DNA from: Candidatus Thorarchaeota archaeon
GTDB lineage: Archaea; Asgardarchaeota; Thorarchaeia; Thorarchaeales; Thorarchaeaceae
Direction: 5' to 3'
NCBI GenBank assembly: GCA_008080745.1
Contig: SHMX01000005.1
Span: 60,001 to 92,000, forward strand
DNA: 32,000 bases
Shown: piece by piece, positions 2,436 through 19,075 of the stretch
Numbering within the stretch: position 1 is the stretch's first letter
How the letters are laid out: each line of letters opens with the position of its first letter
Position numbers and translations under genes: made by a program
The notes under the pieces: model-generated
Database searches by the model: none
What the model saw: only the letters and a program-made list of their open reading frames with translations
What the model was told of the DNA's origin: nothing

Positions 2436-4310
2436 CTATCTTCTTGGTTTGTCATCCAACAATCCGAGTCTTCTCAGTGTGGTATCGAATGGAATGCCAG
2501 TTTCTATATCCCACCCACGATATTCATAGTATTCGTCAAGCATCTGATTGAGTTCTACCACTTCTCCCTTATTCGGCCCTAATGGTGCTGGCTCGTCCGT
2601 AAGTCGTTTTGGTAACTGATCATCTTTTCGTGATATTCCCAATCTGATATTGAACAGCCGATTGAGATTTACGATTCTCTCTCCTATGGTCTGTAGTTCT
2701 TCCCGGGTAAAAACAAGTCCATTATGTATTCGGAGGGCAAGTGCAACATCTTCGTAATAGAATTCTGGAGGGATCTGTGTTCCATATTTACAAAGCCCCA
2801 CACTCTCAATCATGACCATATAGTCTTCACATTCCTTTACCATGATTCCTTTGTAGGTTGGATTCAGACGTTCTGCCATCTCTGGCAAGTATTCCTCACC
2901 AAATCGTTCTCTTATCTCATCGTCAAATCCCGCCTCATCAAGCACAGGAAACGAATAGAGATGATCAGCTCCTCTTGCAGCTGTTACTGCAGCTAATCCC
3001 ATAGATTTCTGAGCTCGTGGTTCTTGTCCGGCTATCTCTTGCTTCTTCACGGTCATAACGAATTTCTCTGTTCCCTTTCCAATCTTTTGAGCTGCGCGAT
3101 AGCTTCCCTCGGCCAAGACATCACCAAAACCTTCACGCATTGCTATCATCTTGGTCAGTTTCACCACTGTTTCATGATTCCCCCACGTTAGATCTATCCC
3201 TCCTGTATCTTCAGCAGTTAATAGACCCTCATCCCATGCTTCCATTGCCCAGGATATAGTAGCACCAAGTGATATCGTATCCATTCCATATTGGTTTGCC
3301 AAATGATGCGAGTAGAGTACAGATTCGACATTATCGTTCCCACAACGGGAACCTAATGATGATTGCGACTCAAACTCAGGAGATCCTCCCTCATAGCAGT
3401 ATGGTCCTGTGGGTACAGCAGTAAACCTTCCACAGCGTTGTAGACAACTCCAATCTGCTCTTGGTTTCACAAGATAATCTTTCGTGATGGTTTCACCGCT
3501 GATTGCTTCATAGCCGTCAAATACTCCTTGACGCATATTGTAGCTTGGAAGTCTTCCAATATGATGCATAAGTTCTACAAGATTTGTTGTTCCATATCGC
3601 GCACGTTCGGGGGTGAAGGGATTAGCAAGCATACGTCTGTAGAACTCATCCATATGCCTAAGGTAATCTATTGGTTCAGCTACCTCGATTTTACCCGTTC
3701 CCCGTACTGAGATTGCTTTTATTTTCTTTGAACCCATAACAGCTCCAAGACCCGAACGAGCTGATGCTCTATCTCTGTCATTCATCACTGCTGCAAACCG
3801 AACTAGGTTCTCACCGGCCTGTCCTATTGCTAAGACGCGGCTCTTTCTACCATATTTCTCTCTAAGATAATCATCCGTTTCAAAGACATCACTACCCCAT
3901 ATATCCTCGGCACTTTCCAGGGTAACATCAGAATCTCGGATATTCAGATAGACTGGATCTTTTGATGCGCCTGTAAATAATACCGCATCATATCCTGCAA
4001 GCTTAATTTCAGTACCCCAAAAACCAGCAGAATGACTCTCACCCCAGACATTGGTCAATGGGGATAAGGCTGCGACCACTATTCTTGATGCTTGAGGAAA
4101 CATGGATCCTGTCAATAGACCGGTTGCTATACCCAATACATTCTTGGGCGATAGAGGATCGATATCCGGTGGAATCTCATCGTATAACACTTTAGAGAGA
4201 TATCCTGCACCTAGAAGATACTTTTTTACAATATCTTCAGGTATCGGTCGTTTCTCTACTTCTCCTTTGGTTAGGTTGACCCAAAGAATCTCGCCACCTA
4301 CTCCTTTCAT
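2436..4310 (-). CDS. aor: Tungsten-dependent aldehyde:ferredoxin oxidoreductase family protein (WOR/AOR), copy 1
   Basis: VNLTKG...YLLG, SPLT..WGES, IGQAGENLVRFA, R.G.GAVMGSKKIKAI, GMDTIS, RGADHL, YYEYRGWD..TG.P. ATG at 4310 with SD GGAGG; the ORF track uses TTG at 4316. Confidence 0.95.
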   Translation of the reverse strand: MKGVGGEILWVNLTKGEVEKRPIPEDIVKKYLLGAGYLSKVLYDEIPPDIDPLSPKNVLGIATGLLTGSMFPQASRIVVAALSPLTNVWGESHSAGFWGTEIKLAGYDAVLFTGASKDPVYLNIRDSDVTLESAEDIWGSDVFETDDYLREKYGRKSRVLAIGQAGENLVRFAAVMNDRDRASARSGLGAVMGSKKIKAISVRGTGKIEVAEPIDYLRHMDEFYRRMLANPFTPERARYGTTNLVELMHHIGRLPSYNMRQGVFDGYEAISGETITKDYLVKPRADWSCLQRCGRFTAVPTGPYCYEGGSPEFESQSSLGSRCGNDNVESVLYSHHLANQYGMDTISLGATISWAMEAWDEGLLTAEDTGGIDLTWGNHETVVKLTKMIAMREGFGDVLAEGSYRAAQKIGKGTEKFVMTVKKQEIAGQEPRAQKSMGLAAVTAARGADHLYSFPVLDEAGFDDEIRERFGEEYLPEMAERLNPTYKGIMVKECEDYMVMIESVGLCKYGTQIPPEFYYEDVALALRIHNGLVFTREELQTIGERIVNLNRLFNIRLGISRKDDQLPKRLTDEPAPLGPNKGEVVELNQMLDEYYEYRGWDIETGIPFDTTLRRLGLLDDKPRR

Positions 4311-4312
4311 TA

Positions 4313-4801
4313 TCAAGCATCCTCCTTATCATAGAGTATATCTTTATGTTTTTCATGCAGTTCAGAAATCCGCCCCTCCGGATCTTTTTCCTTCAGATCT
4401 TCTTCTGAGGTCAACCAAATTGCATTTACTGGGCATCTTTCGACACACGCACCGCATTGAATACATTTGAATGCCTTTCCTGTGTCTGGGTGAATCCTAA
4501 TCGCAAAGTATGGACAAGCTTCAACGCATGCTCCAGTTCCATCACACCTCTTGTTGTTAACAATTACAACCCCCTTAGAGGTTCGCATAATTGCCTCATT
4601 TGGGCATGCCGTAATACAGGGTGCATCTTCGCAGTTTCTACAAAAGAGTGGGAAGTCTAGTCCTGGTTCTATTCTAACAGCTCGTACCCGCGCTCTTTCT
4701 GGACTTATCACTTTGTAGAATTTCATGCTACATACATTCACACAGATCATACATCCAGTACATATATGGGGGTCACCAATAACAAATCTCAATTCGCTCA
4801 C
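4313..4801 (-). CDS. Four-cluster iron-sulfur electron-transfer subunit (DmsB/HybA/NarH-like) partnering WOR copy 1
   Basis: CTGCMICVNVC, CRNCEDAPCITACP, CDGTGACVEACP, KCIQCGACVERCP; its stop lies 2 nt before the WOR ATG. Confidence 0.92.
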   Translation of the reverse strand: MSELRFVIGDPHICTGCMICVNVCSMKFYKVISPERARVRAVRIEPGLDFPLFCRNCEDAPCITACPNEAIMRTSKGVVIVNNKRCDGTGACVEACPYFAIRIHPDTGKAFKCIQCGACVERCPVNAIWLTSEEDLKEKDPEGRISELHEKHKDILYDKEDA

Positions 4802-6172
4802 CTATCTCTTCTCCTCTATTGTTCGCCCTCCCATGGGCTGAAATATTCCATGTCCGGGTTTAACAAGAATTCTGCCCTCTTCATATACTGGTACACCCCT
4901 GACCAATGTCATAAGTGGCACTCCTTTCATCTTCAAACCCTCATAAAGTGTCCAATCGCATTTGGATAGCATCATCTCAGCCGTTATCTTTTCCTCCTTG
5001 GTCTGGTCTACAATAACGATATCCGCATCCGAACCAACCTGTAATATACCCTTTTTTGGGTAGAGCCCAAATATTTTGGCTGGGTTCTTTGACGCAACTT
5101 GGAGAAGTCTTGGGTATGAGATACGATTTTTATTCAGACCCTCTGAGAGCAAAACACGAAGAATCATCTGAATTCCATCTACCCCTGCCCACGCTTGACG
5201 AATGTCATCTCTCCCCTCTTCCTTTTTTTCTATTGGACAGGGTGCATGGTCGCTTACGGTGATATCAATCATCCCTCGAAGCAATGCGGACCATAATTCC
5301 GCCTTATCTTGTTTGGACCTTAGAGGCGGATTCATTTTGCTTTTGGGTCCGATTCGATTCATCTCATCACGGTGAAACATAAGATGATGGGGACATACTT
5401 CCGTTGTGACCATGACTCCATTCAACTTTCCTCTCTCCACCTCACGAATGCCTTCTCTTGTAGAGATATGAGCAATATGCAGATGTCCGCCAGTCTTCTC
5501 AGCAATTCCAATGACATGTCTAACTGCAAGCTGTTCTGCCAAGTTTGGTCTTGATAAGGAATGACTGATGGGGGCATCCCATTCATTGAGCATGTCTTTG
5601 CTAAACTCATCTAGAACTCCTTGATCTTCACAATGGATGGTCACATGTCCTCCATTTACGGATACTTCGCTGAGAAGACGCGATATCACACCGGAGTTAG
5701 TATAGAATGGTTCACAGGTAAATGCTTTGAATGACGCCGCTCCGCGAGCAATCATCTCGGGAACAATTGGGTAGTTCTCAGCATTCATCATTCCTACATT
5801 GAAAGCAAAATCGACAATGGATAGGTTGGACCCATCTGCAATCTTTTCCTGTAACATATCTGGGGTATCCATCTGACTTACGAGTGGCATATCTACTATT
5901 GTGGTTACTCCTCCAGCCGCAGCAGCAAAGGAACCGGGGGTAAACTCTTCATGATCAAGCATTCCTCTGTCATGGATATGTGCATGTCCATCAATCAATC
6001 CTGGCATCACAATTTTCTGTTTGGCATCAATTACTCTATCAGCATCAGGTAGATGATTGTCGGTAGCAATTATAGATATGATACCATCACGGATACCTAT
6101 CCCTGCCTGAACAAGGCCCGATTCGAATAGCAATCTTCCATTTCTAATAACGATATCCACGGTTCTGCTCAT
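4802..6172 (-). CDS. Cyclic amidohydrolase, allantoinase/dihydropyrimidinase-like
   Basis: Binuclear metal motifs DGHAHI, carbamylated Lys in FKAF, HCED, HIAHIS, EVCPHHL, KMNPPLR, SDHAP. It lacks the HxHxR(EPG) arginine of dihydroorotases, and AWAGVDG resembles allantoinase WGGI.G. Confidence 0.85.
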   Translation of the reverse strand: MSRTVDIVIRNGRLLFESGLVQAGIGIRDGIISIIATDNHLPDADRVIDAKQKIVMPGLIDGHAHIHDRGMLDHEEFTPGSFAAAAGGVTTIVDMPLVSQMDTPDMLQEKIADGSNLSIVDFAFNVGMMNAENYPIVPEMIARGAASFKAFTCEPFYTNSGVISRLLSEVSVNGGHVTIHCEDQGVLDEFSKDMLNEWDAPISHSLSRPNLAEQLAVRHVIGIAEKTGGHLHIAHISTREGIREVERGKLNGVMVTTEVCPHHLMFHRDEMNRIGPKSKMNPPLRSKQDKAELWSALLRGMIDITVSDHAPCPIEKKEEGRDDIRQAWAGVDGIQMILRVLLSEGLNKNRISYPRLLQVASKNPAKIFGLYPKKGILQVGSDADIVIVDQTKEEKITAEMMLSKCDWTLYEGLKMKGVPLMTLVRGVPVYEEGRILVKPGHGIFQPMGGRTIEEKR

Positions 6173-6187
6173 TCTAAGGTTTTCCTC

Positions 6188-6478
6188 CTATTGTGGATTT
6201 CCGCCGCCAATGGGGGGGAAAATTGCAACAGCATCCCCATCTGAAAGTTTTGTGTCATATCCATCTAGGGTTTCAATCCGTTTTCCGTTTATCATACAAG
6301 AGAAGAATCGTTTCAGTCTTGTAGTACCCTCTTGGAACACTGTTTCTTGAAATTCCTTGTCATATTGTTTCTTCAGCTTTATGAGAAGTTCTCCTACTGT
6401 GTCTGCTTCCATGTCAACCTTTCCTGTTCCTGCTACACTTCGAACAGTTGCAAAGAACTTCACCGTGACTTTAGCCAA
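6188..6478 (-). CDS. moaD: MoaD/ThiS/SAMP-type ubiquitin-like sulfur carrier with a 4-aa extension after the GG motif
   Basis: VTVKFFATVR...INGKRI...LSDGDAVAIFPPIGG-GNPQ*. Start is TTG at 6478 or at 6487. Confidence 0.9.
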   Translation of the reverse strand: MAKVTVKFFATVRSVAGTGKVDMEADTVGELLIKLKKQYDKEFQETVFQEGTTRLKRFFSCMINGKRIETLDGYDTKLSDGDAVAIFPPIGGGNPQ

Positions 6479-6504
6479 ATCCAACACCTACTAGACAAAG
6501 GCTT

Positions 6505-6518
6505 GAAGATGTTTTAAC
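6505..6518 (+). promoter_or_regulatory. Putative BRE/TATA element in the divergent moaD / pfkB intergenic region
   Basis: gaagatgttttaac: a purine-rich run followed by TTTTAA. Similar elements at 12829-12841 (gaaaatgtttatc) and 26225-26236 (caagattataat). Confidence 0.3.
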
Positions 6519-6602
6519 AGTTCGGAAATGTTATTGAAGTCGTTCCATAGACATATAGGGAATAATCTCTATTTGCTCTACTGTAATTCTGGAGTTGATA
6601 GC

Positions 6603-7496
6603 GTGGAGATAGTTGTCGTTGGTCATCTGAGCAGGGACCTTATCATTACCCCGGATTTGACAAGAGAGAGTCTCGGTGGTGCTCCAGCATATGCGATGAT
6701 TGCCCCTGCCATTGGTGCTCTCGGAGCGGGTATTGTGTCTCGAATAGGTTCAGACTTTGAACAGTCATATTTGAACGCACTTTACAGGTCTGGCCTTGAT
6801 CTCACGGGACTGAGAACTAGTCAAGACAAGTCCACCCGGTTTATCAATATCTACAACGCTGAGGGCGAGCGTACTCAACGAATAGAGTCAATCGCACCTC
6901 CTATTCATGGTTATGATTATTTACCAAAACATCTCTTGGCATCTATCTTTCATTTTTCTCCTCTTACCCCTGATGAGATTCATATCTCCTGTATTGAAAC
7001 TGCAAAGAGTTCGGGAGCATTGGTTTCTCTGGATGTTCAAGGATATTTACGGAATATTTCGGGGGAGAATGTCACATTATCTCGTTGGGAGTATCCCGAT
7101 GAAGTACTGAAATTTGTCGATATTGTCAAGGCCGAGGAATCCGAGGTGAAGTTCATATTTGAAGCGAAGACGGAGGTTTCAGCCGTATCTCGCATTTTGA
7201 GCCTGGGTCCTAGAGTTGTAATTATTACACGTAGCCAGAAAGGTTCAACTATCTACACCAGAAATAATCACGTTGATATACCACTAGTGTTGGCTGACAA
7301 GTTCATTGACAGTACAGGGTGTGGGGATGTCTATTCTATCGGATTTCTACTCTCTTACATGCGAACCGGAGATGTAAGTAAGGCTGGACTCTTTGGAGCA
7401 ACGTGTGCGTCTTTCAACTTGGAATCAATTGGCCCATATAATCCTCCCTCTATTGAACAGGTGGAGGAACGAATGCGAACCTATCTCCATGGCTGA
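6603..7496 (+). CDS. PfkB/ribokinase family carbohydrate or nucleoside kinase
   Basis: VVVGHLSRD, GGAPAYA, G.VSRIGSDF, VIITRSQKGS, DSTGCGDVY (PfkB signature variant). GTG at 6603 follows a GGAG SD; the ORF track starts at 6528. Confidence 0.88.
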   Translation: MEIVVVGHLSRDLIITPDLTRESLGGAPAYAMIAPAIGALGAGIVSRIGSDFEQSYLNALYRSGLDLTGLRTSQDKSTRFINIYNAEGERTQRIESIAPPIHGYDYLPKHLLASIFHFSPLTPDEIHISCIETAKSSGALVSLDVQGYLRNISGENVTLSRWEYPDEVLKFVDIVKAEESEVKFIFEAKTEVSAVSRILSLGPRVVIITRSQKGSTIYTRNNHVDIPLVLADKFIDSTGCGDVYSIGFLLSYMRTGDVSKAGLFGATCASFNLESIGPYNPPSIEQVEERMRTYLHG

Positions 7497-7638: not shown

Positions 7639-10407
7639 GTGTTGTTGGTGCTACGGAGTAAAGGTGTAGTTATACTCATTATTCTTGTTTCAGCTCTTTT
7701 CTTGTTTCTATCAATAGTTGGGAATAACTGTGATAATTCAATATATTCTTCAGAAGACATTTCTGAAACTGATTCGTTTCCCATGAAACTGAACCATCCA
7801 AGTTGGTACACTGATGAAGATTTTGATAATATGACCGCTCCAATATGTGATATGTCCGGTAATACTTTGGATGCCAGTGACGATGATTGGCCAACTTATG
7901 ATGCTATATTTACCTACTTCTACAATAATCAAAAGCATTTTGCCTTTATTTCTATGGCATGGGATGGACAAGACCTCTATTTCTATATAAGTATAAATGA
8001 TCCGAATAATTTGGAAACTGATACGGGATTTATGTTTGCTATCTTTATTCAATTTCCCGATCTATCTACAGACGATTTCTATATTGAGGTTACCGATTTC
8101 GAGAATGGTATATACAATACTGGAGGTATAAGTTCGGATGAAATTACATACGATAAGGATACAGGGAATCCAAGGATTGAATGTGAATATGATTTGAGCC
8201 CCTCTATCGTTGCTGGAACTGATTTGGGAATTTGTTTCTATTATCACGACTATGAATCAGATATTATAGACACATTTCCTATGTACTATGATGGAGGAAC
8301 AGAACCGGATCAATCGTATGGTACAGAATGGGCGCAATTACATTTGTTAGATGACACAGAGAGCCCACAAGTGGCACTGCAAGAACCTACCACCGAGGGG
8401 AACTACAATTATACATACGACACTCGCGAAATTGAATGGACTGCTTCAGATAATTATGCTATCGACCACTTTGATATCTTGAACAATAACAGTCTCCTTC
8501 AAGCGGGACTATCATCTGGTATACGGAGTTATAACATACCCGATTTGGGAGAGGGCGTACATAACATCACAGTAATTGTTTATGATACAAGAGATAATTG
8601 GGATACTAGTTATTTTTGGTTGGTTGTTGACAAAACCTCTCCAATTATGGATATAATCAGTCCTGTGAATTTATTCAATTGCACCTCACAATACGAATGG
8701 TTGAATTGGTCGGTAAGTGATAGTCTAACTTGGGTAGATTCGATATTTGTTTTTGATAATGAAACCAATGTTTCGGGTCAATTATCTGGAGATGTAACTT
8801 CATTTGAGTTGAGTCTTAGTCAAGGTCTTCATAATATCACAATAGTCGCTTATGATGTAGTTGGTAATATGGATACAGATACCATTTGGATTCGACGAGA
8901 TGGAATCACTCCCAATATTGAATTTCTTACTCCGGTGGAATTCGCATATCTTGATAGTTCTGAGGTTACTGTTTCTTGGATCGTGAACGATTCTAATCCC
9001 AGTTCTGATATTTATAGGACTCTTGTCTATCTTGATGAGCTTTTAAATAAAAGCAAACTTGGTATTATCTCGGAGGTTGATTGGCTATTATTTGAGGGTG
9101 AACATAATGTGACTATAGTTGTTGAGGATTATGCTGGAAATATTGAATCTTCAACCATTATGTTCTATGTAGATTTAAGCAATCCAGATATACAAATTAT
9201 AAAACCCTCTGCTGATATATATCTTTCAAATTCGTCTTATTCATTCATAATTGAATGGACTGCTTCGGATAATGTAGCTATTGACTACTTTGAACTATGG
9301 ATCGGAAGTACTTCCTATATTTTCGAATCAGATGTTCGCATGTATGAACCAGCGACTATAACATCAACGACCGCCTACACATTGAAGATCTTTGATAAAG
9401 CTGGTCATGTTGATTCAGATGGATTTGTTGTGTATTTTGATTCTTCTGGAGATACTTCTCCTCCCTTGCTATCAATTGAAAACCCTGTAAACGAAACCTA
9501 TTGTAATAGTGATGTTCTACTTAGTTGGGTTGCGAGTGATGCAGAATGCGAGATACGATATGTGAACATTAGCTTAGATGGTACTCTAATTCATTCAACA
9601 ACTGAATCTAGTGGTTCATATACTCTTGAATTTGAAGAAGAAGGAGTTCACAATCTATTTGTTATCACATGTAATGATATTGGACTAACAAAGAATAGAA
9701 GTATAGTCATTTTCTATGATATAACCCCTCCAACGATTACTATCCAATCTCCGAACAACAACCAGATTTTGATAAATTCCAATTTTCTAGTCACATGGAT
9801 AGGTGATGATGAAGGAATTATTGGCTCAATAGATTACTATGAAATTTTTCTTGGTTCTTTATCTCTTCGTCAGACAGAAAGTAACACTTACGCTTTTTCC
9901 GACATTTCCGATGGAGAATACTCTATTCGTGTAATTATTCATGATAAAGCAGGAAATATCGCTGAAGACTCTGTTACTATATGGGTGGATGTGGGTACAC
10001 CGACTCTCAGTCTTGTTAACCCAGCTAATTCTTTCACCCACAAAAAATCTGATGGAAACCTTATCCGGATTTCTTGTTTGGCTCAAGATAGTGCATCGGT
10101 ATCTTCTGTTGTCTTATATTTGACTGGGATTGATAATGAATATTCAAAAACATTGAATTTTTCATTTAATCCATCCACTGGTCATTGGGAAGTAACTTGG
10201 GACATCACAGAGGTTGAATATGGTTTATATTATCTGAATGTAACTGTACATGATTTGGCAGGCCATTCGAATTCGATAATTATAACTTCTGAATTAGTAC
10301 CTCCTACTCCTCTTGAGATACTGAAGGCAAATGCATTTTTCTTTACAGTAATCGGAGGCAGTGTCACGGTAATCGGTTTCATATTTAAGAGAACCCGAAA
10401 AGAGTAA
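7639..10407 (+). CDS. Membrane-anchored surface glycoprotein: signal/TM, DOMON/CBM9-like domain, 7 Ig-like repeats, C-terminal TM plus basic tail
   Basis: Hydrophobic N-terminus; AWDGQDLYFYISIND (DOMON/CBM9-like); seven roughly 90-aa repeats D.t.P.i.i..P...W..sD...G.h.i.i...D.aGn; about 18 NxS/T sequons by manual count; C-terminal FFFTVIGGSVTVIGFIF-KRTRKE. Confidence 0.85.
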   Translation: MLLVLRSKGVVILIILVSALFLFLSIVGNNCDNSIYSSEDISETDSFPMKLNHPSWYTDEDFDNMTAPICDMSGNTLDASDDDWPTYDAIFTYFYNNQKHFAFISMAWDGQDLYFYISINDPNNLETDTGFMFAIFIQFPDLSTDDFYIEVTDFENGIYNTGGISSDEITYDKDTGNPRIECEYDLSPSIVAGTDLGICFYYHDYESDIIDTFPMYYDGGTEPDQSYGTEWAQLHLLDDTESPQVALQEPTTEGNYNYTYDTREIEWTASDNYAIDHFDILNNNSLLQAGLSSGIRSYNIPDLGEGVHNITVIVYDTRDNWDTSYFWLVVDKTSPIMDIISPVNLFNCTSQYEWLNWSVSDSLTWVDSIFVFDNETNVSGQLSGDVTSFELSLSQGLHNITIVAYDVVGNMDTDTIWIRRDGITPNIEFLTPVEFAYLDSSEVTVSWIVNDSNPSSDIYRTLVYLDELLNKSKLGIISEVDWLLFEGEHNVTIVVEDYAGNIESSTIMFYVDLSNPDIQIIKPSADIYLSNSSYSFIIEWTASDNVAIDYFELWIGSTSYIFESDVRMYEPATITSTTAYTLKIFDKAGHVDSDGFVVYFDSSGDTSPPLLSIENPVNETYCNSDVLLSWVASDAECEIRYVNISLDGTLIHSTTESSGSYTLEFEEEGVHNLFVITCNDIGLTKNRSIVIFYDITPPTITIQSPNNNQILINSNFLVTWIGDDEGIIGSIDYYEIFLGSLSLRQTESNTYAFSDISDGEYSIRVIIHDKAGNIAEDSVTIWVDVGTPTLSLVNPANSFTHKKSDGNLIRISCLAQDSASVSSVVLYLTGIDNEYSKTLNFSFNPSTGHWEVTWDITEVEYGLYYLNVTVHDLAGHSNSIIITSELVPPTPLEILKANAFFFTVIGGSVTVIGFIFKRTRKE

Positions 10408-10486: not shown

Positions 10487-11680
10487 GTGACTGTAATGTT
10501 CGAAGATCTCGACCCACTTATGGAAGACGTTGGAATTGACGCATTGGTTTGTGAAGGAAATGCCTTTGAGGTTCCTGATATTGTCTGGCTGACTGGATTT
10601 CGCTCGACAGACTCAGTGATATATTTCAAAAACCAAGGTGAAAAGGGGCTGATTGCAACAGGGTATAATACCCTCGACCGTGCAAAAAAGGAGAGTTCGG
10701 TTACAGAATACCATGATCTGACTCCAATTTACAAAGATCTAAGACGAGAGAAAAAACGAGCCTATGAACATCCAGATGTCATCTATGGAGAGATTCTCAC
10801 TAGCCATTTCTCAGGTACGGTGATAGGTGTGCCAGACCACCTACCCGCAAGAGTACTTGTGGCTATTCAGCAACTTGGATATGACGTAAAAGTCGTTCCA
10901 AAACTTGTGAATAAGGCTCGTGCCACTAAAACAAAAGAAGAGATTGAAATCATCAGAAAGGCTGGTCATGCTACAACCTCAGCTATCAAGCGTGTTGTTG
11001 AGATGATTAAAGATGCAGACGTGGGTGAGAAGGACTCGCTCGTTCTTGATGGCACTCCTCTGACAGTTGGTCGAATCAAACTGGCCTTGGAACACTTCTT
11101 ACTCGATCAAGGTGCCGAGTCTGCAGAAGATGCAATTGTTGCCGTTGGTGACAAGGGGTTTGACTGGCACTATCTTGGAAAGTCCGATGATCATCTCAAA
11201 GCAAATGTACCCATAATTATGGATGTCTTTCCTCGTCTGAAACATGAGCGGTATGTTGCGGACGTTACTCGTACCATTGTGAAGGGTCGGGTTGACAAAA
11301 CTCTTCAGAATATGTTTGACGCCGTACACAGTGCTCTTGCCGCTTCAATAGAGGCTCTAACAGATGGTGCGAAAATCGATGATGTGAATATGGCATGTTT
11401 CCAGACCCTAAAACGTCATGGATACGATTCTAGTAGGCTGAATCTTGATGCCGAAGAGGGTATGACTCATGGTCTCGGACACGGAATTGGTCTTGAGGTG
11501 CATGAAGAACCAAGTATGTATCGATATGAGGAACATTTTGAAGCTGGACATGTTGTGGCAATTGAACCTGGAGTATATCTGAAGGCAATTGGTGGTGTCC
11601 GTATAGAGAACGATTATGCAGTCACTAAGAATGGTGCAAAGCGCCTAACAACTGATTTGGAAGACCTGATCTTTGTATAA
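10487..11680 (+). CDS. Xaa-Pro aminopeptidase/prolidase (peptidase M24)
   Basis: Metal ligands in IIMDVFP, YVADVTRT, HGLGHGIGLEVHE, IEPGVY, GVRIEND. The start may be ATG at 10496 (GGTGA SD). Confidence 0.93.
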   Translation: MTVMFEDLDPLMEDVGIDALVCEGNAFEVPDIVWLTGFRSTDSVIYFKNQGEKGLIATGYNTLDRAKKESSVTEYHDLTPIYKDLRREKKRAYEHPDVIYGEILTSHFSGTVIGVPDHLPARVLVAIQQLGYDVKVVPKLVNKARATKTKEEIEIIRKAGHATTSAIKRVVEMIKDADVGEKDSLVLDGTPLTVGRIKLALEHFLLDQGAESAEDAIVAVGDKGFDWHYLGKSDDHLKANVPIIMDVFPRLKHERYVADVTRTIVKGRVDKTLQNMFDAVHSALAASIEALTDGAKIDDVNMACFQTLKRHGYDSSRLNLDAEEGMTHGLGHGIGLEVHEEPSMYRYEEHFEAGHVVAIEPGVYLKAIGGVRIENDYAVTKNGAKRLTTDLEDLIFV

Positions 11681-11681
11681 T

Positions 11682-12776
11682 TCACTCATAACCTAATGCA
11701 GCAAAGGGGCAGACTGATATACACATACCGCAGGCCTGACAATCTTCAGAATTGATCTGCAATATTCCGTCTTCTTTGTTAGCTGTTATTGCGTCATATA
11801 CACACGATTTCACACAGAGACCACAGACAGTACATTTCTCGTGGTCAATACTAGGCGGGGGAGTAAGCTCTGTCAATTGTTTCAGAGCAATCCCTCTGAT
11901 TTCATTAATTGACCCGTAACCATGGGTGTCCAACCATTTCTTGGTTTCATCTACTATCTTTCCATAGATAGTATGGCCCTCAAGAATTGCAGCTGTACAG
12001 ACTTGAACCGCAGATGCTCCTGCCATTACAAACTCTATGACATCCTCTCCTGATGTGACCCCTCCAACTCCCATGATGGGTAAGTCTACTGCTTGTGCAA
12101 TATCTGCTACACATCTAAGAGCGATTGGCTTAAGTGCCGGACCGCTCAACCATCCCTGGCCTCCCTCTCCACCTAGCATAGGTCTTGCTGTTTCTATATC
12201 GATTCTAAGACAGGGGCCGTATGTGTTAATAGCAACAATTCCATCCACATGGGGCTCAAGTGATTTTGCTACTTTTGCAACATCTACTTTTGGACTAAGC
12301 TTGGCAAAAATAGGAATATTTACAGAATCTCGTAATGCTTTGGCAATTTCTACATGTCCTCCTACATAGTGTGTACTGAACTCTATTGCCTCTACACCTG
12401 CCCTTTCCATCTCTGGTGCAAGTGAAGAAACCTCTTCTGGTGTATATCCAACACTTGCTACTAACGTTAATCCCGAACTCTTTGCAATTGCATATTCTTT
12501 CTCAAACCATTGTTCAGGTGGCAATTCACTCCATAATTCGGTGTTTAGAATTCCTCTTCTGGAGGATACTCTTCCTCTTCCAATTGCAGCCATATTTGGT
12601 CTTGGAATCTGTGCCCCTTTGACACTGATAGTCTTTGCAACTAGACCACCAACTCCTCCTGTTGCCGCAGTGAGAAGTGTCATTCCATCGCGTGATGTGG
12701 GACCAGCTGCTGTGAGAATTGGATTTCGAAATTTCAATCCTGCAAATTCAACCTGAAGATCTGCCATACATACCAT
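11682..12776 (-). CDS. DHODH/dihydropyrimidine dehydrogenase PreA-like FMN protein with a C-terminal 2x[4Fe-4S] domain and a non-canonical active site
   Basis: NPILTAAGP, KTIS, LNTELWS, KLSP, INT, GWLSGPALKPIALR, GVGGV, GASAVQVCTA; C-terminal CTVCGLCVKSC and CQACGMCISVCP. The ELNxxCP loop is replaced by EFSTHY. Confidence 0.85.
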   Translation of the reverse strand: MVCMADLQVEFAGLKFRNPILTAAGPTSRDGMTLLTAATGGVGGLVAKTISVKGAQIPRPNMAAIGRGRVSSRRGILNTELWSELPPEQWFEKEYAIAKSSGLTLVASVGYTPEEVSSLAPEMERAGVEAIEFSTHYVGGHVEIAKALRDSVNIPIFAKLSPKVDVAKVAKSLEPHVDGIVAINTYGPCLRIDIETARPMLGGEGGQGWLSGPALKPIALRCVADIAQAVDLPIMGVGGVTSGEDVIEFVMAGASAVQVCTAAILEGHTIYGKIVDETKKWLDTHGYGSINEIRGIALKQLTELTPPPSIDHEKCTVCGLCVKSCVYDAITANKEDGILQINSEDCQACGMCISVCPFAALGYE

Positions 12777-13233: not shown

Positions 13234-15168
13234 CTATGCCAGCATTCCTCTCTGCTCAAGGTCCTTTACAACGAAGTCGAGATCCAGGTCCTCAAGAACT
13301 GATTTCTTAGGATAGCCTGTTTCTTTGTCACAACCTCGTAGTTCGTAATATTCGTCTAGCATATAGTCTAGATCTGGTAATCCGCCCTTAGATGGACCTG
13401 TCGGCATGGGTTCCTTCAGTAGCCTTCGTGGTAGAGTTTCATCTTTTCTCGTGATTCCAAGCCTGTGATTATACGCACGCCTGAGATGACTGATTCTGTC
13501 CGCAGATTGTCGTACGTATTTGACATCTCCCCATTCTACCATGCCTGTCAATGCAGGAAGCACATTTGCAAAGGTATCAAAGTAAAATATCGGGGGCCAC
13601 ATAGTTCCATACTTGCATATGACTGCTGAATCAGTTATTGCATAAAGGTTCTCCATGTCATAGACCACCAAGCCCTTGTGGACTGGCGACATGATCTCCT
13701 GAATCTCCTCTGCCTTGTCCTCTCCAAATCTGCGAATAGATATCTCGGGAAATCCTAATTCTTCGAGACTGGAGAGACTTCGTAAGTGATCAGCACCTCT
13801 TACGTTGGTTGCATAGGTAAGCCCTATTGATTGATGTGCACGAGGGTCTTGACCTGATGCCTCGAGTCCCTTTGAGTGAACTGCATATTTCCATGCTTCT
13901 CCGCCTATAATTTCTGCAGCTTTTCGAGTTCCGTGAGATAATAACTCGCCAATACCCTTCTCTCGTTTAGCAATTTTTTCAATTAGAGCGTTTATGGCAT
14001 CAACATTACCCCAGGACAAATCTAATCCATCAGTGTCCTTCTCGGTAAGTATTCCCTTCTCCCAGAGTTCCATTGCAAAGCTGATGGTCTTTCCACAAGA
14101 AATTGTATCCATCCCAAGTAGATCACAACGATGTCCTTGATGGAATACAGCTTCAATATCACTATTCATACAATTAGATCCGAAAGCCATGAGTGTTTCA
14201 TACTCGGGTCCACCAGCAGGGCCACCTGCGAATTTTCCCTCTTTAACACGATAGACGTACTTACAACCTATCCCACAGCCATGACAAGCTTCTTGGGCAA
14301 TTCGGTATTTTTCTGCAATAATCTCCGGGCCTATTTTTTCAGCCTCTTCAAAGAAGCCAGTCCAGTGATTCTTTGTCGGTAACCTTCCTATCTCGTTAAT
14401 CATGGCCACCAAGTCGGTGGTTCCATAATCTCTAAGGCTCCTGAGGAAATCTTTCCATAACGGGTCGTTTAGTCGCTCCATCTCTCTCTGGTTAGCCTCA
14501 AGATATGCATCCATATCATGTGCCTCCAGTCCAAGCGAGCCCCGTGCAGCAATCGCCTTTACATTCTTTGAACCCAATACTGTGCCGAGACCCGTTCTAC
14601 CTGCCGCACGATAGTAATCTACAATGATAGCTCCATAGAGTACCCCATTCTCACCTGCAGGACCTATAGTTGCAGTTTCTATAGCTGGGTCTCTATGCTC
14701 CTCTCTAATCATATCTGTTGTTTCATCAGTTTCTCGTCCCCATAATCTAGAAGCGTCACGAAGTTCCGCTTTTCCATCATTTAACCAGAGATAGACTGGT
14801 TTGGGCGATTTACCATTAAAAATGACAAAGTCGAATCCCGCATATTTAATCTCGGGACCCAGGAAGCCGCCAACATGACTCTCCGCCCAAATTCCAGTTA
14901 GAGGGCTTTTTCCTGAAAACATCATTCTTCCTGAGGGTGAAAACATTACACCTGTAAGAGGGCCTGTACCGACGATGACTATATTTTCTGGTGAAAGTGG
15001 GTCTGTATCGGGACCAGTTCTATCCCACAGAATCTTTGATGATATACCAGTTCCTCCAAGATAGAGTCTAGCCCATTCTTTCTCCATCTCCTTTTTGTGA
15101 ACCTTTCCTAGGGTAAGATCCACATCTAGATAGTATCCTGCATAACCTTTGTATGGAAAATCAGTCAT
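13234..15168 (-). CDS. aor: Tungsten-dependent aldehyde:ferredoxin oxidoreductase family protein (WOR/AOR), copy 2
   Basis: GYAGYYLDVDLT, GKSPLTG, IGPAGENGV, GSKNVKAI, CHGCGIGC, GPEYET, DLLGMDTIS, RGADHL, DSAVIC, YYELRG.D..TG.P. Confidence 0.95.
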   Translation of the reverse strand: MTDFPYKGYAGYYLDVDLTLGKVHKKEMEKEWARLYLGGTGISSKILWDRTGPDTDPLSPENIVIVGTGPLTGVMFSPSGRMMFSGKSPLTGIWAESHVGGFLGPEIKYAGFDFVIFNGKSPKPVYLWLNDGKAELRDASRLWGRETDETTDMIREEHRDPAIETATIGPAGENGVLYGAIIVDYYRAAGRTGLGTVLGSKNVKAIAARGSLGLEAHDMDAYLEANQREMERLNDPLWKDFLRSLRDYGTTDLVAMINEIGRLPTKNHWTGFFEEAEKIGPEIIAEKYRIAQEACHGCGIGCKYVYRVKEGKFAGGPAGGPEYETLMAFGSNCMNSDIEAVFHQGHRCDLLGMDTISCGKTISFAMELWEKGILTEKDTDGLDLSWGNVDAINALIEKIAKREKGIGELLSHGTRKAAEIIGGEAWKYAVHSKGLEASGQDPRAHQSIGLTYATNVRGADHLRSLSSLEELGFPEISIRRFGEDKAEEIQEIMSPVHKGLVVYDMENLYAITDSAVICKYGTMWPPIFYFDTFANVLPALTGMVEWGDVKYVRQSADRISHLRRAYNHRLGITRKDETLPRRLLKEPMPTGPSKGGLPDLDYMLDEYYELRGCDKETGYPKKSVLEDLDLDFVVKDLEQRGMLA

Positions 15169-15650
15169 TATTCGCTTCCCTCCTGAATACCAACTTTAGT
15201 TGATACCTGCTTCATCCCAATCTGCCTTTCTAAATTTCCCTCTCCTTCAGTTTCCAGTCGGATAACACCATACTCACATGCTTTTATGCAGGCCGGATCA
15301 CCATCGCACAGGTCGCACTTTATTGCTTTTCTGGACACAGGGTCTATTACAATTCCACCATAAATACAGGCAGAAACACAATTTCCACAACCTATGCAAA
15401 CATCATTATTCACTGTGAGCGATCCAATAGAATTGGGGATTATTGCATTAGTCGGACATGCGTCAGCACAAAGAGGCTCTTGGCACTGAAGGCAGACCAT
15501 TGGTATAATCAATCCCTTATGCTCATCTTTGAGAATCTGTATTCTTGCCCTAATAGGATTGAATGTGGATGTCTTTCTTGCTGAGCATGCTAGCTCACAA
15601 TTTCTACAACCCGTACAACTTTTTGCATCGATGACTAGGAGTTTTTTCAA
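15168..15650 (-). CDS. Four-cluster [4Fe-4S] electron-transfer subunit partnering WOR copy 2
   Basis: CTGCRNCELAC, CLQCQEPLCADACP, CIGCGNCVSAC, KCDLCDGDPACIKAC; TAATG overlap with the WOR start. Confidence 0.92.
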   Translation of the reverse strand: MKKLLVIDAKSCTGCRNCELACSARKTSTFNPIRARIQILKDEHKGLIIPMVCLQCQEPLCADACPTNAIIPNSIGSLTVNNDVCIGCGNCVSACIYGGIVIDPVSRKAIKCDLCDGDPACIKACEYGVIRLETEGEGNLERQIGMKQVSTKVGIQEGSE

Positions 15651-15829: not shown

Positions 15830-17626
15830 ATGATGAATAAAATTCACTCCATCGACTCTCCCAGAGATTCCTTACAAAGGTCTCAATTCCACAAAGTAGC
15901 AGATAGTATGCGGATTGCAATACTCGAGTTTAATCTGGATTTGGAATTGATATATGCTAATCCTGTCGCCAAGAGCATCTTTGGTTTAGATGATGTGGAT
16001 ATAACGAATCCCATTCCCTATTCTGATTTGGTTGTTTCAGAACAGGTGAAGATAATCAAGTCAGCATTTCAGAGATTTCTATCTGGAGAAAAACCTCGAT
16101 CAATGACAGTACGAGTCATTGCGAAACATGGTGTACATATACCCTTCCAAGTTATTCCCGAACTGGTTTTTCATAATGGAGCGCCTGTTGGTCTGGTTGT
16201 CTATGCCATGGACCTCTCTCGAAGGATTGTAATCAACCAACGGATTATGAACCGAGCAGAATACTTCAAGCTTATCGTAGAATATTCTAGCTTCACTGGT
16301 ATCCTAATTGTTGACGATCAATATCGTTTTGACTGGGTGAATGACAAGCTCTGTGACATAATTGGTTACACCCGAGAGGAATTGCTATCTATGGATTTCA
16401 GGGAGGTCTTACATCCTGATAGTCTGGATCTGACTGCTGATAGGTATAAGCGTCGCCAACAAGGTGAGACCCTACCAGCAACATATGAAATACAAGCAAT
16501 TTCTAAGGATGGGACTATCAAAGACCTGATGCTTACCAGTAGAGTCTACAAGAGTGGAGATGAACTCAAAAGTGTTGCACAGGTATTAGACGTTACTGAG
16601 CAAAATCGGCAGCGTCAAGCACTTGAAAACAGTGAACGGAGATACCGAACTCTTATCGAAACCATAATCGCTGGACTGGGTATTGATGATACTGATGGTA
16701 AGATAATCTATGCTAATGAAACTCTCAGTAAGATGACTGGATACTCTATTGACGAACTGGTTGGGATGAAGGGATCCTCCCTGGTCTATGAACTTACTCC
16801 TGATCGAATTCAAGCTAGACGAGATGGTAAATTCGAACAATATGAGGCACATCTTGTACACAAGTCGGGAGATCTAGTACCAGTAATTGTTTCAGCTTCA
16901 CCTCTCATGGATGCTAATGATGATTTTGAGGGTTCTTTTGCAATATTTACCGATATTTCAGAGCTCAAGTCTGTAGAAGATGAAGTACGCTTTCTACTTG
17001 ATTTGATTCTTCATGACATTGGAAATCAATTACAGTTGATAATTGCTGGTAGTGGTCTGATTGCGGAGGATGCTCCAGAGGATATTCTTCTCCGTGCGAA
17101 AGAGTACATTTTGGACGGGGCACAACGCAGTCTTGATTTAATACGAAAAGTACGTGGTGCTGAGAAGGCAAAAAGCGAAGTTCTGAAACCAGTTGATATA
17201 TCCGAGGTGATTGATGCAGAATCAATGCTGCTTTGGAAACAACACGGAGTTATGCCCGACATCGAGGGCATTCCTGAATCCCTTATGGTCTTAGCGGACA
17301 GTGCTGTTAATCATCTCATTTGGAACATTCTGGAAAATTCAGTCAAGCACAATCCTGACCCAGAACCGCAGGTGTGGATTCAGGGGGCAATTGAGGACGA
17401 CCATTTAATTTTAGAAATAGCCGATAATGGACCGGGATTGGATGAACGCAAGCGGGATCAGCTCTTTGATGTTCAAAGAAGGTATGGCGGGGTGGGCCTG
17501 CATTTGGTACGAAGACTTGCTAAGAAATACTGTACACTTCCTGAAGTCTGTGACCGGGTAGAAGAGAATCCTGAGGAAGGGCTTTGTATTAGAATACGGT
17601 TCCATATAGCGCAGGCTGAACCATAA
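15830..17626 (+). CDS. Cytoplasmic sensor histidine kinase with three PAS domains
   Basis: PAS starts YANPVAKSIFG, WVNDKLCDIIGYTREEL, YANETLSKMTGYSIDEL; H-box ILHDIGNQLQ; N-box NILENSVKH; DNGPGL; GGVGLHLV. No TM segment. Confidence 0.92.
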   Translation: MMNKIHSIDSPRDSLQRSQFHKVADSMRIAILEFNLDLELIYANPVAKSIFGLDDVDITNPIPYSDLVVSEQVKIIKSAFQRFLSGEKPRSMTVRVIAKHGVHIPFQVIPELVFHNGAPVGLVVYAMDLSRRIVINQRIMNRAEYFKLIVEYSSFTGILIVDDQYRFDWVNDKLCDIIGYTREELLSMDFREVLHPDSLDLTADRYKRRQQGETLPATYEIQAISKDGTIKDLMLTSRVYKSGDELKSVAQVLDVTEQNRQRQALENSERRYRTLIETIIAGLGIDDTDGKIIYANETLSKMTGYSIDELVGMKGSSLVYELTPDRIQARRDGKFEQYEAHLVHKSGDLVPVIVSASPLMDANDDFEGSFAIFTDISELKSVEDEVRFLLDLILHDIGNQLQLIIAGSGLIAEDAPEDILLRAKEYILDGAQRSLDLIRKVRGAEKAKSEVLKPVDISEVIDAESMLLWKQHGVMPDIEGIPESLMVLADSAVNHLIWNILENSVKHNPDPEPQVWIQGAIEDDHLILEIADNGPGLDERKRDQLFDVQRRYGGVGLHLVRRLAKKYCTLPEVCDRVEENPEEGLCIRIRFHIAQAEP

Positions 17627-17677
17627 TTGTTATGATGTACTTGTTCGTATAGAATACTCCTATTGGAGGTACATCCT

Positions 17678-19075
17678 TTGGAATCCTTTGAATCAATTCT
17701 TATCAAAAATGGCTACATTCTAACCCTTGACCCAAAACGCAGAATTCTCCCAAAGGGCAGCATTCGTATCGAAGGGAACAAGATTGTGGAGGTCTCAAAG
17801 ACACCCTCCAAACTGCCCCAGGCTGAATTAGAGATAGATGCCACTGGAAAGATTGTCATGCCGGGTCTAATTGACACCCATGTACATCTGGCACAGGCAT
17901 TGATTCGAGGATGTGCAGATGATGTATCACTTGTTGATTGGTTGAAAAACTATGTCTGGGTACTACAAGGAAATTTCACTCATGAGGATGGAAAGGTTTC
18001 CGCTGAACTATGTATGGCTGAGATGATTCGGACGGGAACTACAGGATTTATTGAATGCATGATCCACTCTCGTTATGGATTTGATGGAATTGCAGAGTCT
18101 GTTGAGAATATTGGTATGCGAGCTGCTCTTTCGAAAATAATCATGGATTCCACTGGTTATGCAGATAGCCCTGATATTATGTACCCTGGAATGATTGAAT
18201 CTGCAGATGCTTGTCTAGCAGAAACTGAATCCATGCTAAAGAAATGGCAATGGGCGGCGCATGGACGTATCCAAGTCTGGTATGGTCTGCGGTCTCTTGG
18301 TGCTGTCACTCCTGATTTGTTCAAGACCGTCGTGGGGCTAGCTGATGAACACGATACCCGAATGACCATGCATCTTGGAGAAGTACAGGATGATGTCAGA
18401 TATGTACGGGAGAATCACAATACAAATCTTGTTGGTTTTGCTCGAAAGATGGGTTTACTGGGTGAGAATATGGTGTTTGCTCATGGTATTCACTTTGAGG
18501 ATGAAGAGATTCAGGAACTTGCTGCTACCCAGTCCAATATCTCTCATTGTCCCGCAAGTAACATGAAATTGGCCTCTGGATTTGCAAAGATTCCTACGAT
18601 GTTAGAATATGGTGTTCCGGTTTCGCTGGGTTGTGATGGTGGACCTAGTAACAATGCCTATGATATGATTCGAGAGATGCGCTTGGCTGCTCTTATTCAC
18701 AAACCCCATGCAAATGATCCAACAGTAGTCAGTGCAGAAGAAGTAATCGAGATGGCAACTTTAGGTGGAGCAAAAGCATTGGGTCTTGGTGACAAACTTG
18801 GTTCTCTGGAAACGGGAAAATTTGCTGATCTGATTCTGGTTGATATGCACAGACTGAATCTCACACCAAAAACCAATCCTGTATCTAACCTTGTCTATGC
18901 TGGTTCTGGCTATGATGTCGATACGGTCATTGTTAATGGACGGATACTCTTGCAAGAGAAAAAACATCTGACAGTAGATATAGAGGAAGTTATGGTTAGA
19001 GCAGAGAAACATGCTGCAGAGTTAGTAGAGCGAGCTGGAGTGGAGATAGTACCAAAATGGCCCATCTCCAACTAA
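17678..19075 (+). CDS. Metal-dependent amidohydrolase/deaminase of the TRZ/ATZ-MTA/SAH deaminase-SsnA family
   Basis: MPGLIDTHVHLAQ, MHLGE, HCPASNMKLASG, LGCDGGPSNN, GSLETGKFADL. TTG at 17678 follows GGAGGT; the ORF track starts at 17663. Confidence 0.9.
   Translation: MESFESILIKNGYILTLDPKRRILPKGSIRIEGNKIVEVSKTPSKLPQAELEIDATGKIVMPGLIDTHVHLAQALIRGCADDVSLVDWLKNYVWVLQGNFTHEDGKVSAELCMAEMIRTGTTGFIECMIHSRYGFDGIAESVENIGMRAALSKIIMDSTGYADSPDIMYPGMIESADACLAETESMLKKWQWAAHGRIQVWYGLRSLGAVTPDLFKTVVGLADEHDTRMTMHLGEVQDDVRYVRENHNTNLVGFARKMGLLGENMVFAHGIHFEDEEIQELAATQSNISHCPASNMKLASGFAKIPTMLEYGVPVSLGCDGGPSNNAYDMIREMRLAALIHKPHANDPTVVSAEEVIEMATLGGAKALGLGDKLGSLETGKFADLILVDMHRLNLTPKTNPVSNLVYAGSGYDVDTVIVNGRILLQEKKHLTVDIEEVMVRAEKHAAELVERAGVEIVPKWPISN

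Follow-up and report, generated by a model that had tools for sequence, protein, structure and literature searches.

A 32,000-nt stretch of a Candidatus Thorarchaeota genome (contig C5:60001-92000 of a 3.16-Mb assembly that is 98% complete, GCA_008080745.1; hereafter the window) carries a conserved operon that couples a cyclic amidohydrolase, distinct from the dihydroorotase PyrC, to a tungsten enzyme of the WOR family, which forms part of a distinct clade and is probably of Class II. In several archaeal lineages, both enzymes are part of the set of genes for the reductive degradation of purine-type rings. The operon very probably serves nucleobase or N-heterocycle catabolism. Our more specific reading, which we hold with evenly balanced confidence, is that it is a module of a conserved Asgard island for the anaerobic breakdown of purine-type N-heterocycles, an archaeal, tungsten-dependent equivalent of the route by which bacteria degrade uric acid reductively (2,8-dioxopurine pathway). 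Somewhat more tentatively, we propose that the WOR clade with the signature R-A/S-D-x-x-C-LQRCGR might comprise not aldehyde oxidoreductases but tungsten purine (N-heterocycle) hydroxylases or dehydroxylases, counterparts of xanthine dehydrogenase and 2,8-dioxopurine dehydrogenase, which in Thorarchaeota would be coupled translationally, and perhaps physically, with the ring-opening amidohydrolase. The substrates, the redox direction and the physical coupling are what we infer from gene context and from the proteins themselves.

The operon and its conservation

The following features make up the operon.

6188-6478, minus strand: Ubl, a MoaD/SAMP1-like ubiquitin-fold protein of 96 residues when read from TTG 6478 (ThiS, MoaD_arch and SAMP1 matches)
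6184-6190, minus strand: TAGGAGG, in which the stop codon of Ubl merges with a Shine-Dalgarno-like GGAGG ahead of the start of the amidohydrolase gene
4802-6172, minus strand: cyclic amidohydrolase of 456 residues with a complete binuclear-metal site (Amidohydro_1)
4313-4801, minus strand: WorS-type polyferredoxin of 162 residues, of the 4-cluster type, here also called the iron-sulfur (FeS) gene (Fer4 families)
2436-4310, minus strand: WorL, the tungstopterin subunit of the aldehyde ferredoxin oxidoreductase (AOR) family, 624 residues from ATG 4310 (AFOR_N and AFOR_C)

The list of open reading frames and the junction sequence show these genes head-to-tail and co-oriented, with gaps of 15, 0 and 2 nt, and bear out a preliminary description of this DNA, which had reported the same spacing and a Shine-Dalgarno sequence at the Ubl stop. 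The TAG of the Ubl gene (6190-6188) merges with GAGG, and the amidohydrolase starts at ATG 6172 after 15 nt. The stop codon of the amidohydrolase (TAG, 4804-4802) touches GTG 4801 of the FeS gene, whose own stop (TGA, 4315-4313) is followed after 2 nt by ATG 4310 of WorL, with AAGGAGG upstream of that ATG. The longest reading frame of Ubl begins at GTG 6487; its orthologues start at the residue encoded by TTG 6478. Public relatives of the proteins of the window carry Thorarchaeota or Promethearchaeota labels.

The order of a divergent PfkB gene followed by Ubl, amidohydrolase, FeS and WOR was found in 33 of the 33 loci of the Thorarchaeota family with enough flanking sequence, and an M24 hydrolase gene adjoins PfkB. 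Because of this recurrence, the arrangement is not a chance adjacency, and the suspicion that the amidohydrolase might stand beside a WOR in this genome only can be set aside. In the large majority of the family's genomes, search coordinates place the amidohydrolase and WOR genes on the same contig, about 500-530 bp apart. Our survey of the co-occurrence of the two genes was positive beyond the close relatives as well, since the linkage is kept across about 16 genera and recurs in a second, distant archaeal lineage. Among 400 genomes of the phylum, orthologues of the amidohydrolase at 57-85% identity occur in the family of the window only, and the next best proteins reach at most 40%. In a representative search of 1.84 billion proteins, identity falls from 62% to 43%. 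None of the distant Asgard homologues (33-40% identity) is adjacent to a WOR gene, and several stand beside a gene of the TRZ type.

Four genomes have inserts of 1.3-3.5 kb between the amidohydrolase and FeS genes. Made up mostly of regulator genes, they comprise PAS histidine kinases in the opposite orientation, a TFB, or a pair of a B12-binding/MutE-like and an octopine-dehydrogenase-like gene, and no extra pathway enzymes. PAS-HATPase sensor kinases recur in or beside the island in several genera (15830-17626 in the window; L155:4542-7485; L158:3706-5091), and in two genomes such a kinase sits on the opposite strand between the amidohydrolase and FeS genes. They may be dedicated regulators of the island.

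The cyclic amidohydrolase

In a Pfam/NCBIfam scan, models of allantoinases, dihydroorotases and hydantoinases all matched the amidohydrolase at about 300-340 bits. It stays below every equivalog cut-off and passes only the broad model TIGR00857 pyrC_multi, with 298 bits against a cut-off of 279; for D-hydantoinase/dihydropyrimidinase (TIGR02033) it scores 312.7 bits where 393.25 are required. The metal site is complete, with H63, H65, K149 at the position of the carbamylated lysine, H180, H235 and the catalytic D308, and this places the protein in the amidohydrolase superfamily. The solved structures closest to it are those of an L-hydantoinase (267 bits), of allantoinases (about 211-231 bits) and of D-hydantoinases, and dihydroorotases score lower (about 192 bits).

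A quick maximum-likelihood tree (IQ-TREE, with SH-aLRT support only) places the enzymes of Thorarchaeota, a WOR-linked group, groups linked to xanthine dehydrogenase and a few other archaeal representatives in one archaeal clade with an SH-aLRT value of 96. HyuA and AllB of E. coli as well as the PyrC paralogue of the genome fall outside. Judged from its sequence, the amidohydrolase is thus a member of an archaeal clade of its own, distinct from PyrC, AllB and HyuA. The orthology with allantoinase or HyuA that we considered was ruled out by the cut-offs, the residues and the position in the tree, and the label of an allantoinase/hydantoinase-like enzyme, which the preliminary description had used, is not supported: the protein lies below the cut-offs of both and lacks the signature residues. 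In the sister group of the clade (L113:7001-8350, cluster P0123 and the relatives L055-L134), the motif reads SEHAP, with Glu replacing the otherwise invariant catalytic and metal-binding Asp; the enzymes of Thorarchaeota keep SDHAP.

Another reading would make the amidohydrolase the biosynthetic dihydroorotase, standing beside WOR without functional meaning. Besides passing the pyrC_multi model, the protein is named dihydroorotase in some records. At the positions of the dihydroorotase motifs HxHxR and MPN, however, it reads HAHIHD and MPLV, and so lacks both the Arg and the Asn that bind dihydroorotate. A second cyclic amidohydrolase, 33% identical and located on contig C2, has dihydroorotases as its top family matches, scores higher on them than the operon gene, carries HVHLRD and MPN and, unlike the operon gene, is spread throughout the phylum. 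A bona fide PyrD(1B)-PyrK pair, above cut-off, lies on the same contig. With a better PyrC and PyrD/PyrK elsewhere in the genome, and with the linkage of the operon enzyme to WOR kept in two lineages, we ruled out biosynthetic PyrC as a candidate; the dihydroorotase that the preliminary description had named as the finding that would overturn its proposal is, at the most, barely conceivable.

An allantoin route, in which the amidohydrolase would be an allantoinase and the WOR would oxidise glyoxylate or another aldehyde released from ureidoglycolate, is very improbable. Allantoinase models are indeed the best NCBIfam matches, and several public sources call the orthologues 'allantoinase', but the scores of 338.7 and 333.4 bits stay under the respective cut-offs of 631 and 357.85. 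The residues N94, S288 and S317, taken here as diagnostic of AllB (structure 3E74), are replaced by V98, N281 and A310, and the protein stands outside the AllB branch. Moreover, the island showed neither an allantoate amidohydrolase nor a ureidoglycine hydrolase or a ureidoglycolate lyase, and the conversion of urate to allantoin would need an oxidative, uricase-type route that is hardly to be expected in this anaerobe.

The tungsten enzyme and its gene context

The anaerobic reductive uric-acid (2,8-dioxopurine) pathway of bacteria was solved in 2025 by two groups (PMC12507026; bioRxiv 10.1101/2025.04.24.650524). In this pathway, urate loses an oxo group through the action of the molybdenum hydroxylase XdhD/DOPDH, the ring is reduced by YgfK or by UacX, a PydA-like protein with flavin mononucleotide (FMN) and FeS clusters, and the cyclic amidohydrolase HyuA opens the hydantoin ring, after which YgeW/YqeA, YgeY and YgeX complete the route to pyruvate (PMC12507026; bioRxiv 10.1101/2025.04.24.650524). 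XdhD, YgfK/UacX, SsnA and HyuA are its enzyme types, and it has no aldehyde intermediate (PMC12507026; bioRxiv 10.1101/2025.04.24.650524).

Relatives of the operon genes were found in the company of such enzymes. The nearest outgroup of the amidohydrolase, cluster P0123 of uncultured archaea with 40-46% identity, is represented by 80 metagenome loci, whose neighbouring genes we clustered and scanned for families. A MobA/MocA-like nucleotidyltransferase lies directly downstream of the amidohydrolase in 67 of them, XdhC follows in 31, and an SsnA/TRZ-type amidohydrolase is adjacent in 52. The long loci have a MoCoBD large subunit of the xanthine dehydrogenase family nearby, with 28% identity to XdhD of E. 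coli over 726 residues. A different order is found in four loci (L103, L108, L111 and L113), where a carbamoyltransferase, a CysK/SbnA-like enzyme dependent on pyridoxal phosphate (PLP), an SsnA-like protein, the amidohydrolase, FeS and WOR follow each other and a Bmp/PnrA-type nucleoside ABC transporter is convergent to the run. SsnA is the best family of the SsnA-like protein (429 bits; cut-off 444), the WOR is 64% identical to WorL of the window, and the FeS-WOR pair holds the position of MocA-XdhC. Beside the SsnA-like gene, a NUDIX domain fused to an IF-2B-family (ribose-1,5-bisphosphate isomerase-like) domain was observed in 13 loci (cluster 7 of the group-B loci; L128:3548-4840), which hints that the sugar part of a nucleoside may be handled alongside the base.

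Three further Asgard families have orthologues of WorL (62-64% identity), and in their loci the same gene set is found without the cyclic amidohydrolase and the SsnA-like gene adjoins the WOR clade. In one family, the SsnA-like gene is divergent from a run of FeS2, WOR2, a PreA-like gene and Ubl, in which the WOR2 stop overlaps the PreA-like start, and a FeS-WOR pair lies a few kb off. Another family has an eight-gene co-oriented run of SsnA-like, a second TRZ-type gene, PreA-like, FeS, Ubl, WOR, FeS and WOR. The wider island is present in the window as well, where the following features accompany the operon.

6528-7496, plus strand: PfkB-family sugar or nucleoside kinase (domain match), divergent from the operon, in a position kept in all related loci
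7639-10407: Big_7/Ig-like surface-protein gene of 922 residues, between PfkB and M24
10487-11680, plus strand: M24 metallopeptidase-fold hydrolase, which in relatives directly follows PfkB
11682-12776, minus strand: PreA/UacX-like DHO_dh flavoprotein with a C-terminal 2x[4Fe-4S] domain, not a biosynthetic PyrD
13234-15650, minus strand: second WorS-WorL pair (FeS2, 15650-15168; WOR2, 15168-13234) with all four cluster cysteines present
15830-17626: PAS histidine kinase (PAS-HATPase sensor) between FeS2 and the TRZ-type gene
17663-19075, plus strand: TRZ/ATZ-family aminohydrolase, divergent from FeS2, at the position of the SsnA-like gene in other Asgard families

The PreA-like gene of the window has orthologues of 53-55% identity beside WOR genes in other Asgard families. 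Its DHO_dh domain with 2x[4Fe-4S] is the architecture described for UacX, so that, by enzyme type, the island combines a ring reductase of the YgfK/UacX kind with a cyclic amidohydrolase. No molybdenum hydroxylase of the XdhD/DOPDH type (PF02738) was found in the genome, and the AOR-family WORs, present as two FeS-WOR pairs, are the only pterin enzymes of the island. A carbamate kinase 46% identical to YqeA is encoded elsewhere in the genome. The TRZ protein of the window was considered as SsnA and rejected, as its best models are of the 5'-deoxyadenosine deaminase type and it is nearer to E. coli GuaD, only its position being that of SsnA. As to the Big_7 gene, PfkB and M24 are adjacent in the closest relatives (L008, L009 and L013), and it looks like a recent insertion. 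The starts of the divergent Ubl and PfkB genes are only 49 bp apart (6479-6527), with TTAAAA about 35 nt upstream of the Ubl start; given this spacing and motif, the intergenic region may be a shared bidirectional promoter.

A hydroxylase-type step of the tungsten enzyme is favoured because of the linkage to SsnA-like genes and because FeS-WOR takes the place of MocA-XdhC. WorL-WorS, exchanging electrons with ferredoxin, would then perform the XdhD/DOPDH-type step, in which a ring carbon of a purine-like base gains or loses an oxo group. Such a reaction is the same formal chemistry as the oxidation of an aldehyde and is also carried out by molybdenum hydroxylases. The nearby PreA/UacX-like flavoprotein would reduce the ring, and the amidohydrolase of the operon would hydrolyse the resulting cyclic ureide or hydantoin-type ring in a HyuA-like step, where tight co-translation with the redox enzyme could serve to pull an unfavourable redox equilibrium. 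The preliminary description had given as its first alternative a WOR acting on an N-heterocycle, as a tungsten analogue of a xanthine dehydrogenase step. The context of SsnA-like, MocA, XdhC and molybdenum hydroxylase genes and the exchange for FeS-WOR in four loci speak for it, while the aldehyde-oxidising residues that WorL keeps do not.

WorL matches AFOR_C with 420.9 and AFOR_N with 248.4 bits over its full length, as expected of the AOR/WOR family, and aligns end-to-end with AORs (full-length matches to 9mqx_D, 434 bits; 1AOR, 397 bits; and 8C0Z). With its small subunit, it would rank as a Class II WOR under the classification of 2026 (PMC13328260). In the same work, T243, E313, Y427 and H448 (numbering of P. 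furiosus AOR, PfAOR) are described as conserved in the aldehyde-oxidising members (PMC13328260). The residue corresponding to Y427 is Gln in WorL, in WOR2 and in the paralogue on contig C1. The clade motif is R[AS]D[WYF]xCLQRCGR, in which Asp stands for the first cysteine of the [4Fe-4S] cluster; WorL accordingly has one Asp ligand (RADWSCLQRCGR) and three Cys in place of the four cysteines C288, C291, C295 and C494 of the Pyrococcus enzyme. Every orthologue of Thorarchaeota that we examined has this Asp, as do the metagenome group linked to WOR and two of the other three Asgard families; Cys is retained in the four WOR paralogues encoded by this genome. Of the 120 homologues closest to WorL, 89 have Asp, 4 have Cys and 27 are unscored. 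Since two of the four Cys proteins are 90% identical to an Asp protein, the two ligands seem to be interchangeable. Named homologues of the clade come from Thor-, Hod-, Odin- and Promethearchaeota and from Geothermarchaeales. An in-frame TGA inside one orthologous WOR (G313) was considered as a selenocysteine codon and turned out to be the natural stop.

The gene for WorS adjoins that of WorL upstream. WorS has the four cluster motifs but 15 instead of 16 cysteines. Its third motif is CDGTGAC, and the second Cys of this motif is replaced by Thr, Ser, His or Asn in most orthologues of Thorarchaeota (L008-L041), with C-x-G-C retained in a few of their genera and in all other lineages. One cluster of WorS may thus be a [3Fe-4S] cluster or have a non-Cys ligand.

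Conventional aldehyde oxidation is the main rival explanation of the island, one that we regard as unlikely but worth serious attention. The island would degrade pyrimidines or purines hydrolytically and reductively, with the PreA-like protein as PydA and the amidohydrolase as the dihydropyrimidinase PydB, and the WOR pairs would oxidise an aldehyde-level product and pass the electrons to ferredoxin. Malonate semialdehyde or methylmalonate semialdehyde, derived from beta-alanine or beta-aminoisobutyrate, would be candidate substrates, as would a formyl group exposed by ring opening. Nearly all characterised WORs act on aldehydes, the best solved relatives of WorL are AORs, and a DHO_dh+Fer4 reductase together with a hydantoinase/dihydropyrimidinase-like enzyme would account for the first two steps of reductive pyrimidine degradation. 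The third FeS-WOR pair of the genome (G000:C1:86000-97000, L043) adjoins a branched-chain amino-acid aminotransferase above cut-off, the context expected of an ordinary oxidoreductase of amino-acid-derived aldehydes. No aminotransferase or other aldehyde-forming enzyme was found in the conserved island in any lineage examined, however, and two features of the context, SsnA-like genes as linked neighbours and FeS-WOR in the place of MocA-XdhC, indicate a hydroxylase step. The reductive purine pathway, moreover, proceeds without an aldehyde (PMC12507026).

Several findings weigh against a purine-acting WOR and have to be set against this context. WorL retains T243, E313 and H448, as in the AORs that oxidise aldehydes, the solved proteins nearest to it (about 40% identity) are aldehyde oxidoreductases, and no enzyme of the WOR family is known to act on a purine or on any lactam carbon (PMC13328260). 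The reactions of its characterised members are the oxidation of aldehydes or sulfonates and the dearomatisation of benzoyl-CoA (PMC13328260). With an identity of just 28% to HyuA of E. coli, the amidohydrolase does not allow a substrate to be assigned from homology. Of the 85 genomes of the family, 69 have the SsnA-like marker, in each case unlinked to the operon; in this genome, the marker was not found. No counterpart of the SsnA region of the sister genome G336 was found here at the nucleotide level, owing to loss or to an assembly gap. The TRZ protein of the window is nearer to deaminases and reaches 218 bits on the SsnA model (cut-off 444), and no bona fide diaminopropionate ammonia-lyase was found. 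In the four relatives with inserts, genes on the opposite strand part the amidohydrolase from FeS-WOR, so that strict co-translation is not universal. Finally, gene neighbourhood is correlative evidence.

The WOR family also includes the ring-reducing BamB (PDB 4z3w, 219 bits to WorL), and a tungsten enzyme fed by low-potential ferredoxin through WorS could dearomatise a heterocycle whose reduced ring the amidohydrolase opens at once, with the Asp-ligated cluster tuning the potential. Ring reduction in bacteria is thermodynamically unfavourable, and Li et al. could detect it only when it was coupled to hydrolysis (PMC12507026). The gaps of 0 and 2 nt between the genes would fit such a need, and the Asp ligand is specific for the clade. 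By sequence, however, WorL is much nearer to AORs (434 bits) than to BamB (219 bits), and the island already encodes a dedicated PreA/UacX-like ring reductase. As Asp and Cys alternate between nearly identical proteins, Asp is unlikely to define a new chemistry. We consider a BamB-like reaction improbable.

Under the hydroxylase reading, as under its alternatives, the role of Ubl has to be considered. The protein matches ThiS with 57.8 bits, the archaeal MoaD model TIGR01687 with 77.4 bits (cut-off 49.5) and SAMP1 with 68.1 bits (cut-off 60). The preliminary description had referred to moaD beside aor as a common arrangement for tungstopterin synthesis. A MoaD-like Ubl does stand in this AOR-type operon, but a function as MoaD in tungstopterin synthesis is doubtful because neither MoaE nor MoaC was found in the genome, which is 98% complete. 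One E1-like ThiF and four ThiS-fold genes are present, and Ubl travels with WOR genes in four Asgard families. We infer that Ubl is an accessory of tungsten enzymes and not a part of molybdopterin synthase. MoaD-like genes in AOR operons are known from Aromatoleum, where aorD and aorE are proposed maturation factors of the tungsten cofactor, and Ubl might similarly act in cofactor handling or sulfur transfer. Most orthologues end exactly in FPP[VI]GGG, with about 30 stopping at GGG. The C-terminus in the window, FPPIGGGNPQ, extends three residues beyond the glycines (6188-6199), and the tails read GGGNKFE in the sister genome and GGGSHE at one other locus, so that three to four extra residues occur in this genus and at that locus. 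Some copies of Ubl would need C-terminal trimming before activation.

Significance and comparison with known systems

A physiological role has been defined for only five of the 92 clades of WORs (PMC13328260). The classification of 2026 makes no mention of amidohydrolases, purines or Asgard archaea (PMC13328260), and our literature search, which combined WOR or tungsten with hydantoinase, amidohydrolase, SsnA and purine degradation, found no link of the WOR family to purine or hydantoin metabolism. If the proposal is true, a WOR clade acting on purine rings would be a new reaction class for tungsten biochemistry, in which a tungsten enzyme replaces a molybdenum hydroxylase of unrelated fold. 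The anaerobic purine pathway solved in gut bacteria would then extend to archaea without xanthine dehydrogenase. It would also provide a concrete route of nucleobase fermentation for Asgard archaea of anoxic sediments, where nucleobases are a major nitrogen and carbon pool of necromass. The genes in question are now annotated as 'allantoinase', 'dihydroorotase' and 'aldehyde ferredoxin oxidoreductase', and metabolic reconstructions of Asgard archaea probably misread them.

Among the known cyclic amidohydrolases, the operon enzyme matches L-hydantoinase (PDB 1GKR), allantoinase (3HM7, 3E74), D-hydantoinase/dihydropyrimidinase (1NFG) and dihydroorotase over the full length and shares the same site of HxH, carbamylated Lys, His, His and Asp. 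It differs from all of them in staying under each specific equivalog cut-off and in belonging to its own archaeal clade.

The tungsten enzyme resembles the Class II WORs (ASOR/WOR5 of P. furiosus and GOR of C. bescii) and the AOR of P. furiosus in its AFOR_N and AFOR_C domains, in keeping T243, E313 and H448, and in having a small subunit of the 4-cluster type directly upstream. A MoaD-like gene within the operon is shared with AorABC of Aromatoleum aromaticum, which is accompanied by the MoaD-like AorD and AorE. Unlike the known WOR/AOR systems, the operon has Asp as the first cluster ligand, Gln at Y427, a WorS with 15 Cys and an amidohydrolase gene between Ubl and WorS.

With reductive pyrimidine degradation (PydA/PreA, PydB and PydC), the island has in common a DHO_dh+Fer4 reductase and a dihydropyrimidinase-like hydrolase. 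Unlike this pathway, the island showed no PreT/FAD partner and no beta-ureidopropionase or beta-alanine aminotransferase that could be recognised, and its relatives are linked to SsnA-like genes and to maturation genes of xanthine dehydrogenase.

The bacterial 2,8-dioxopurine clusters are ygeW-ygeX-ygeY-hyuA-yqeA ... mocA-ygfK-ssnA-ygfM-xdhD in E. coli and those with UacX in C. difficile and C. sporogenes (PMC12507026; bioRxiv 10.1101/2025.04.24.650524). Like these, the island encodes a redox enzyme with a pterin cofactor, a PydA/PreA-like FMN/FeS ring reductase and a cyclic amidohydrolase in an anaerobic, ferredoxin-type setting, and its relatives add an SsnA-like protein, a carbamoyltransferase and a PLP enzyme. 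In contrast to the bacterial clusters, the amidohydrolase is not an orthologue of HyuA, from which it is separated by its low identity and its clade, and the genome lacks SsnA. The conserved set of the island further includes the MoaD-like Ubl, the PfkB kinase and the M24 hydrolase, and its pterin enzyme is a tungstoenzyme of the AOR family with a polyferredoxin, where the bacterial pathway has a molybdenum enzyme of the xanthine dehydrogenase family.

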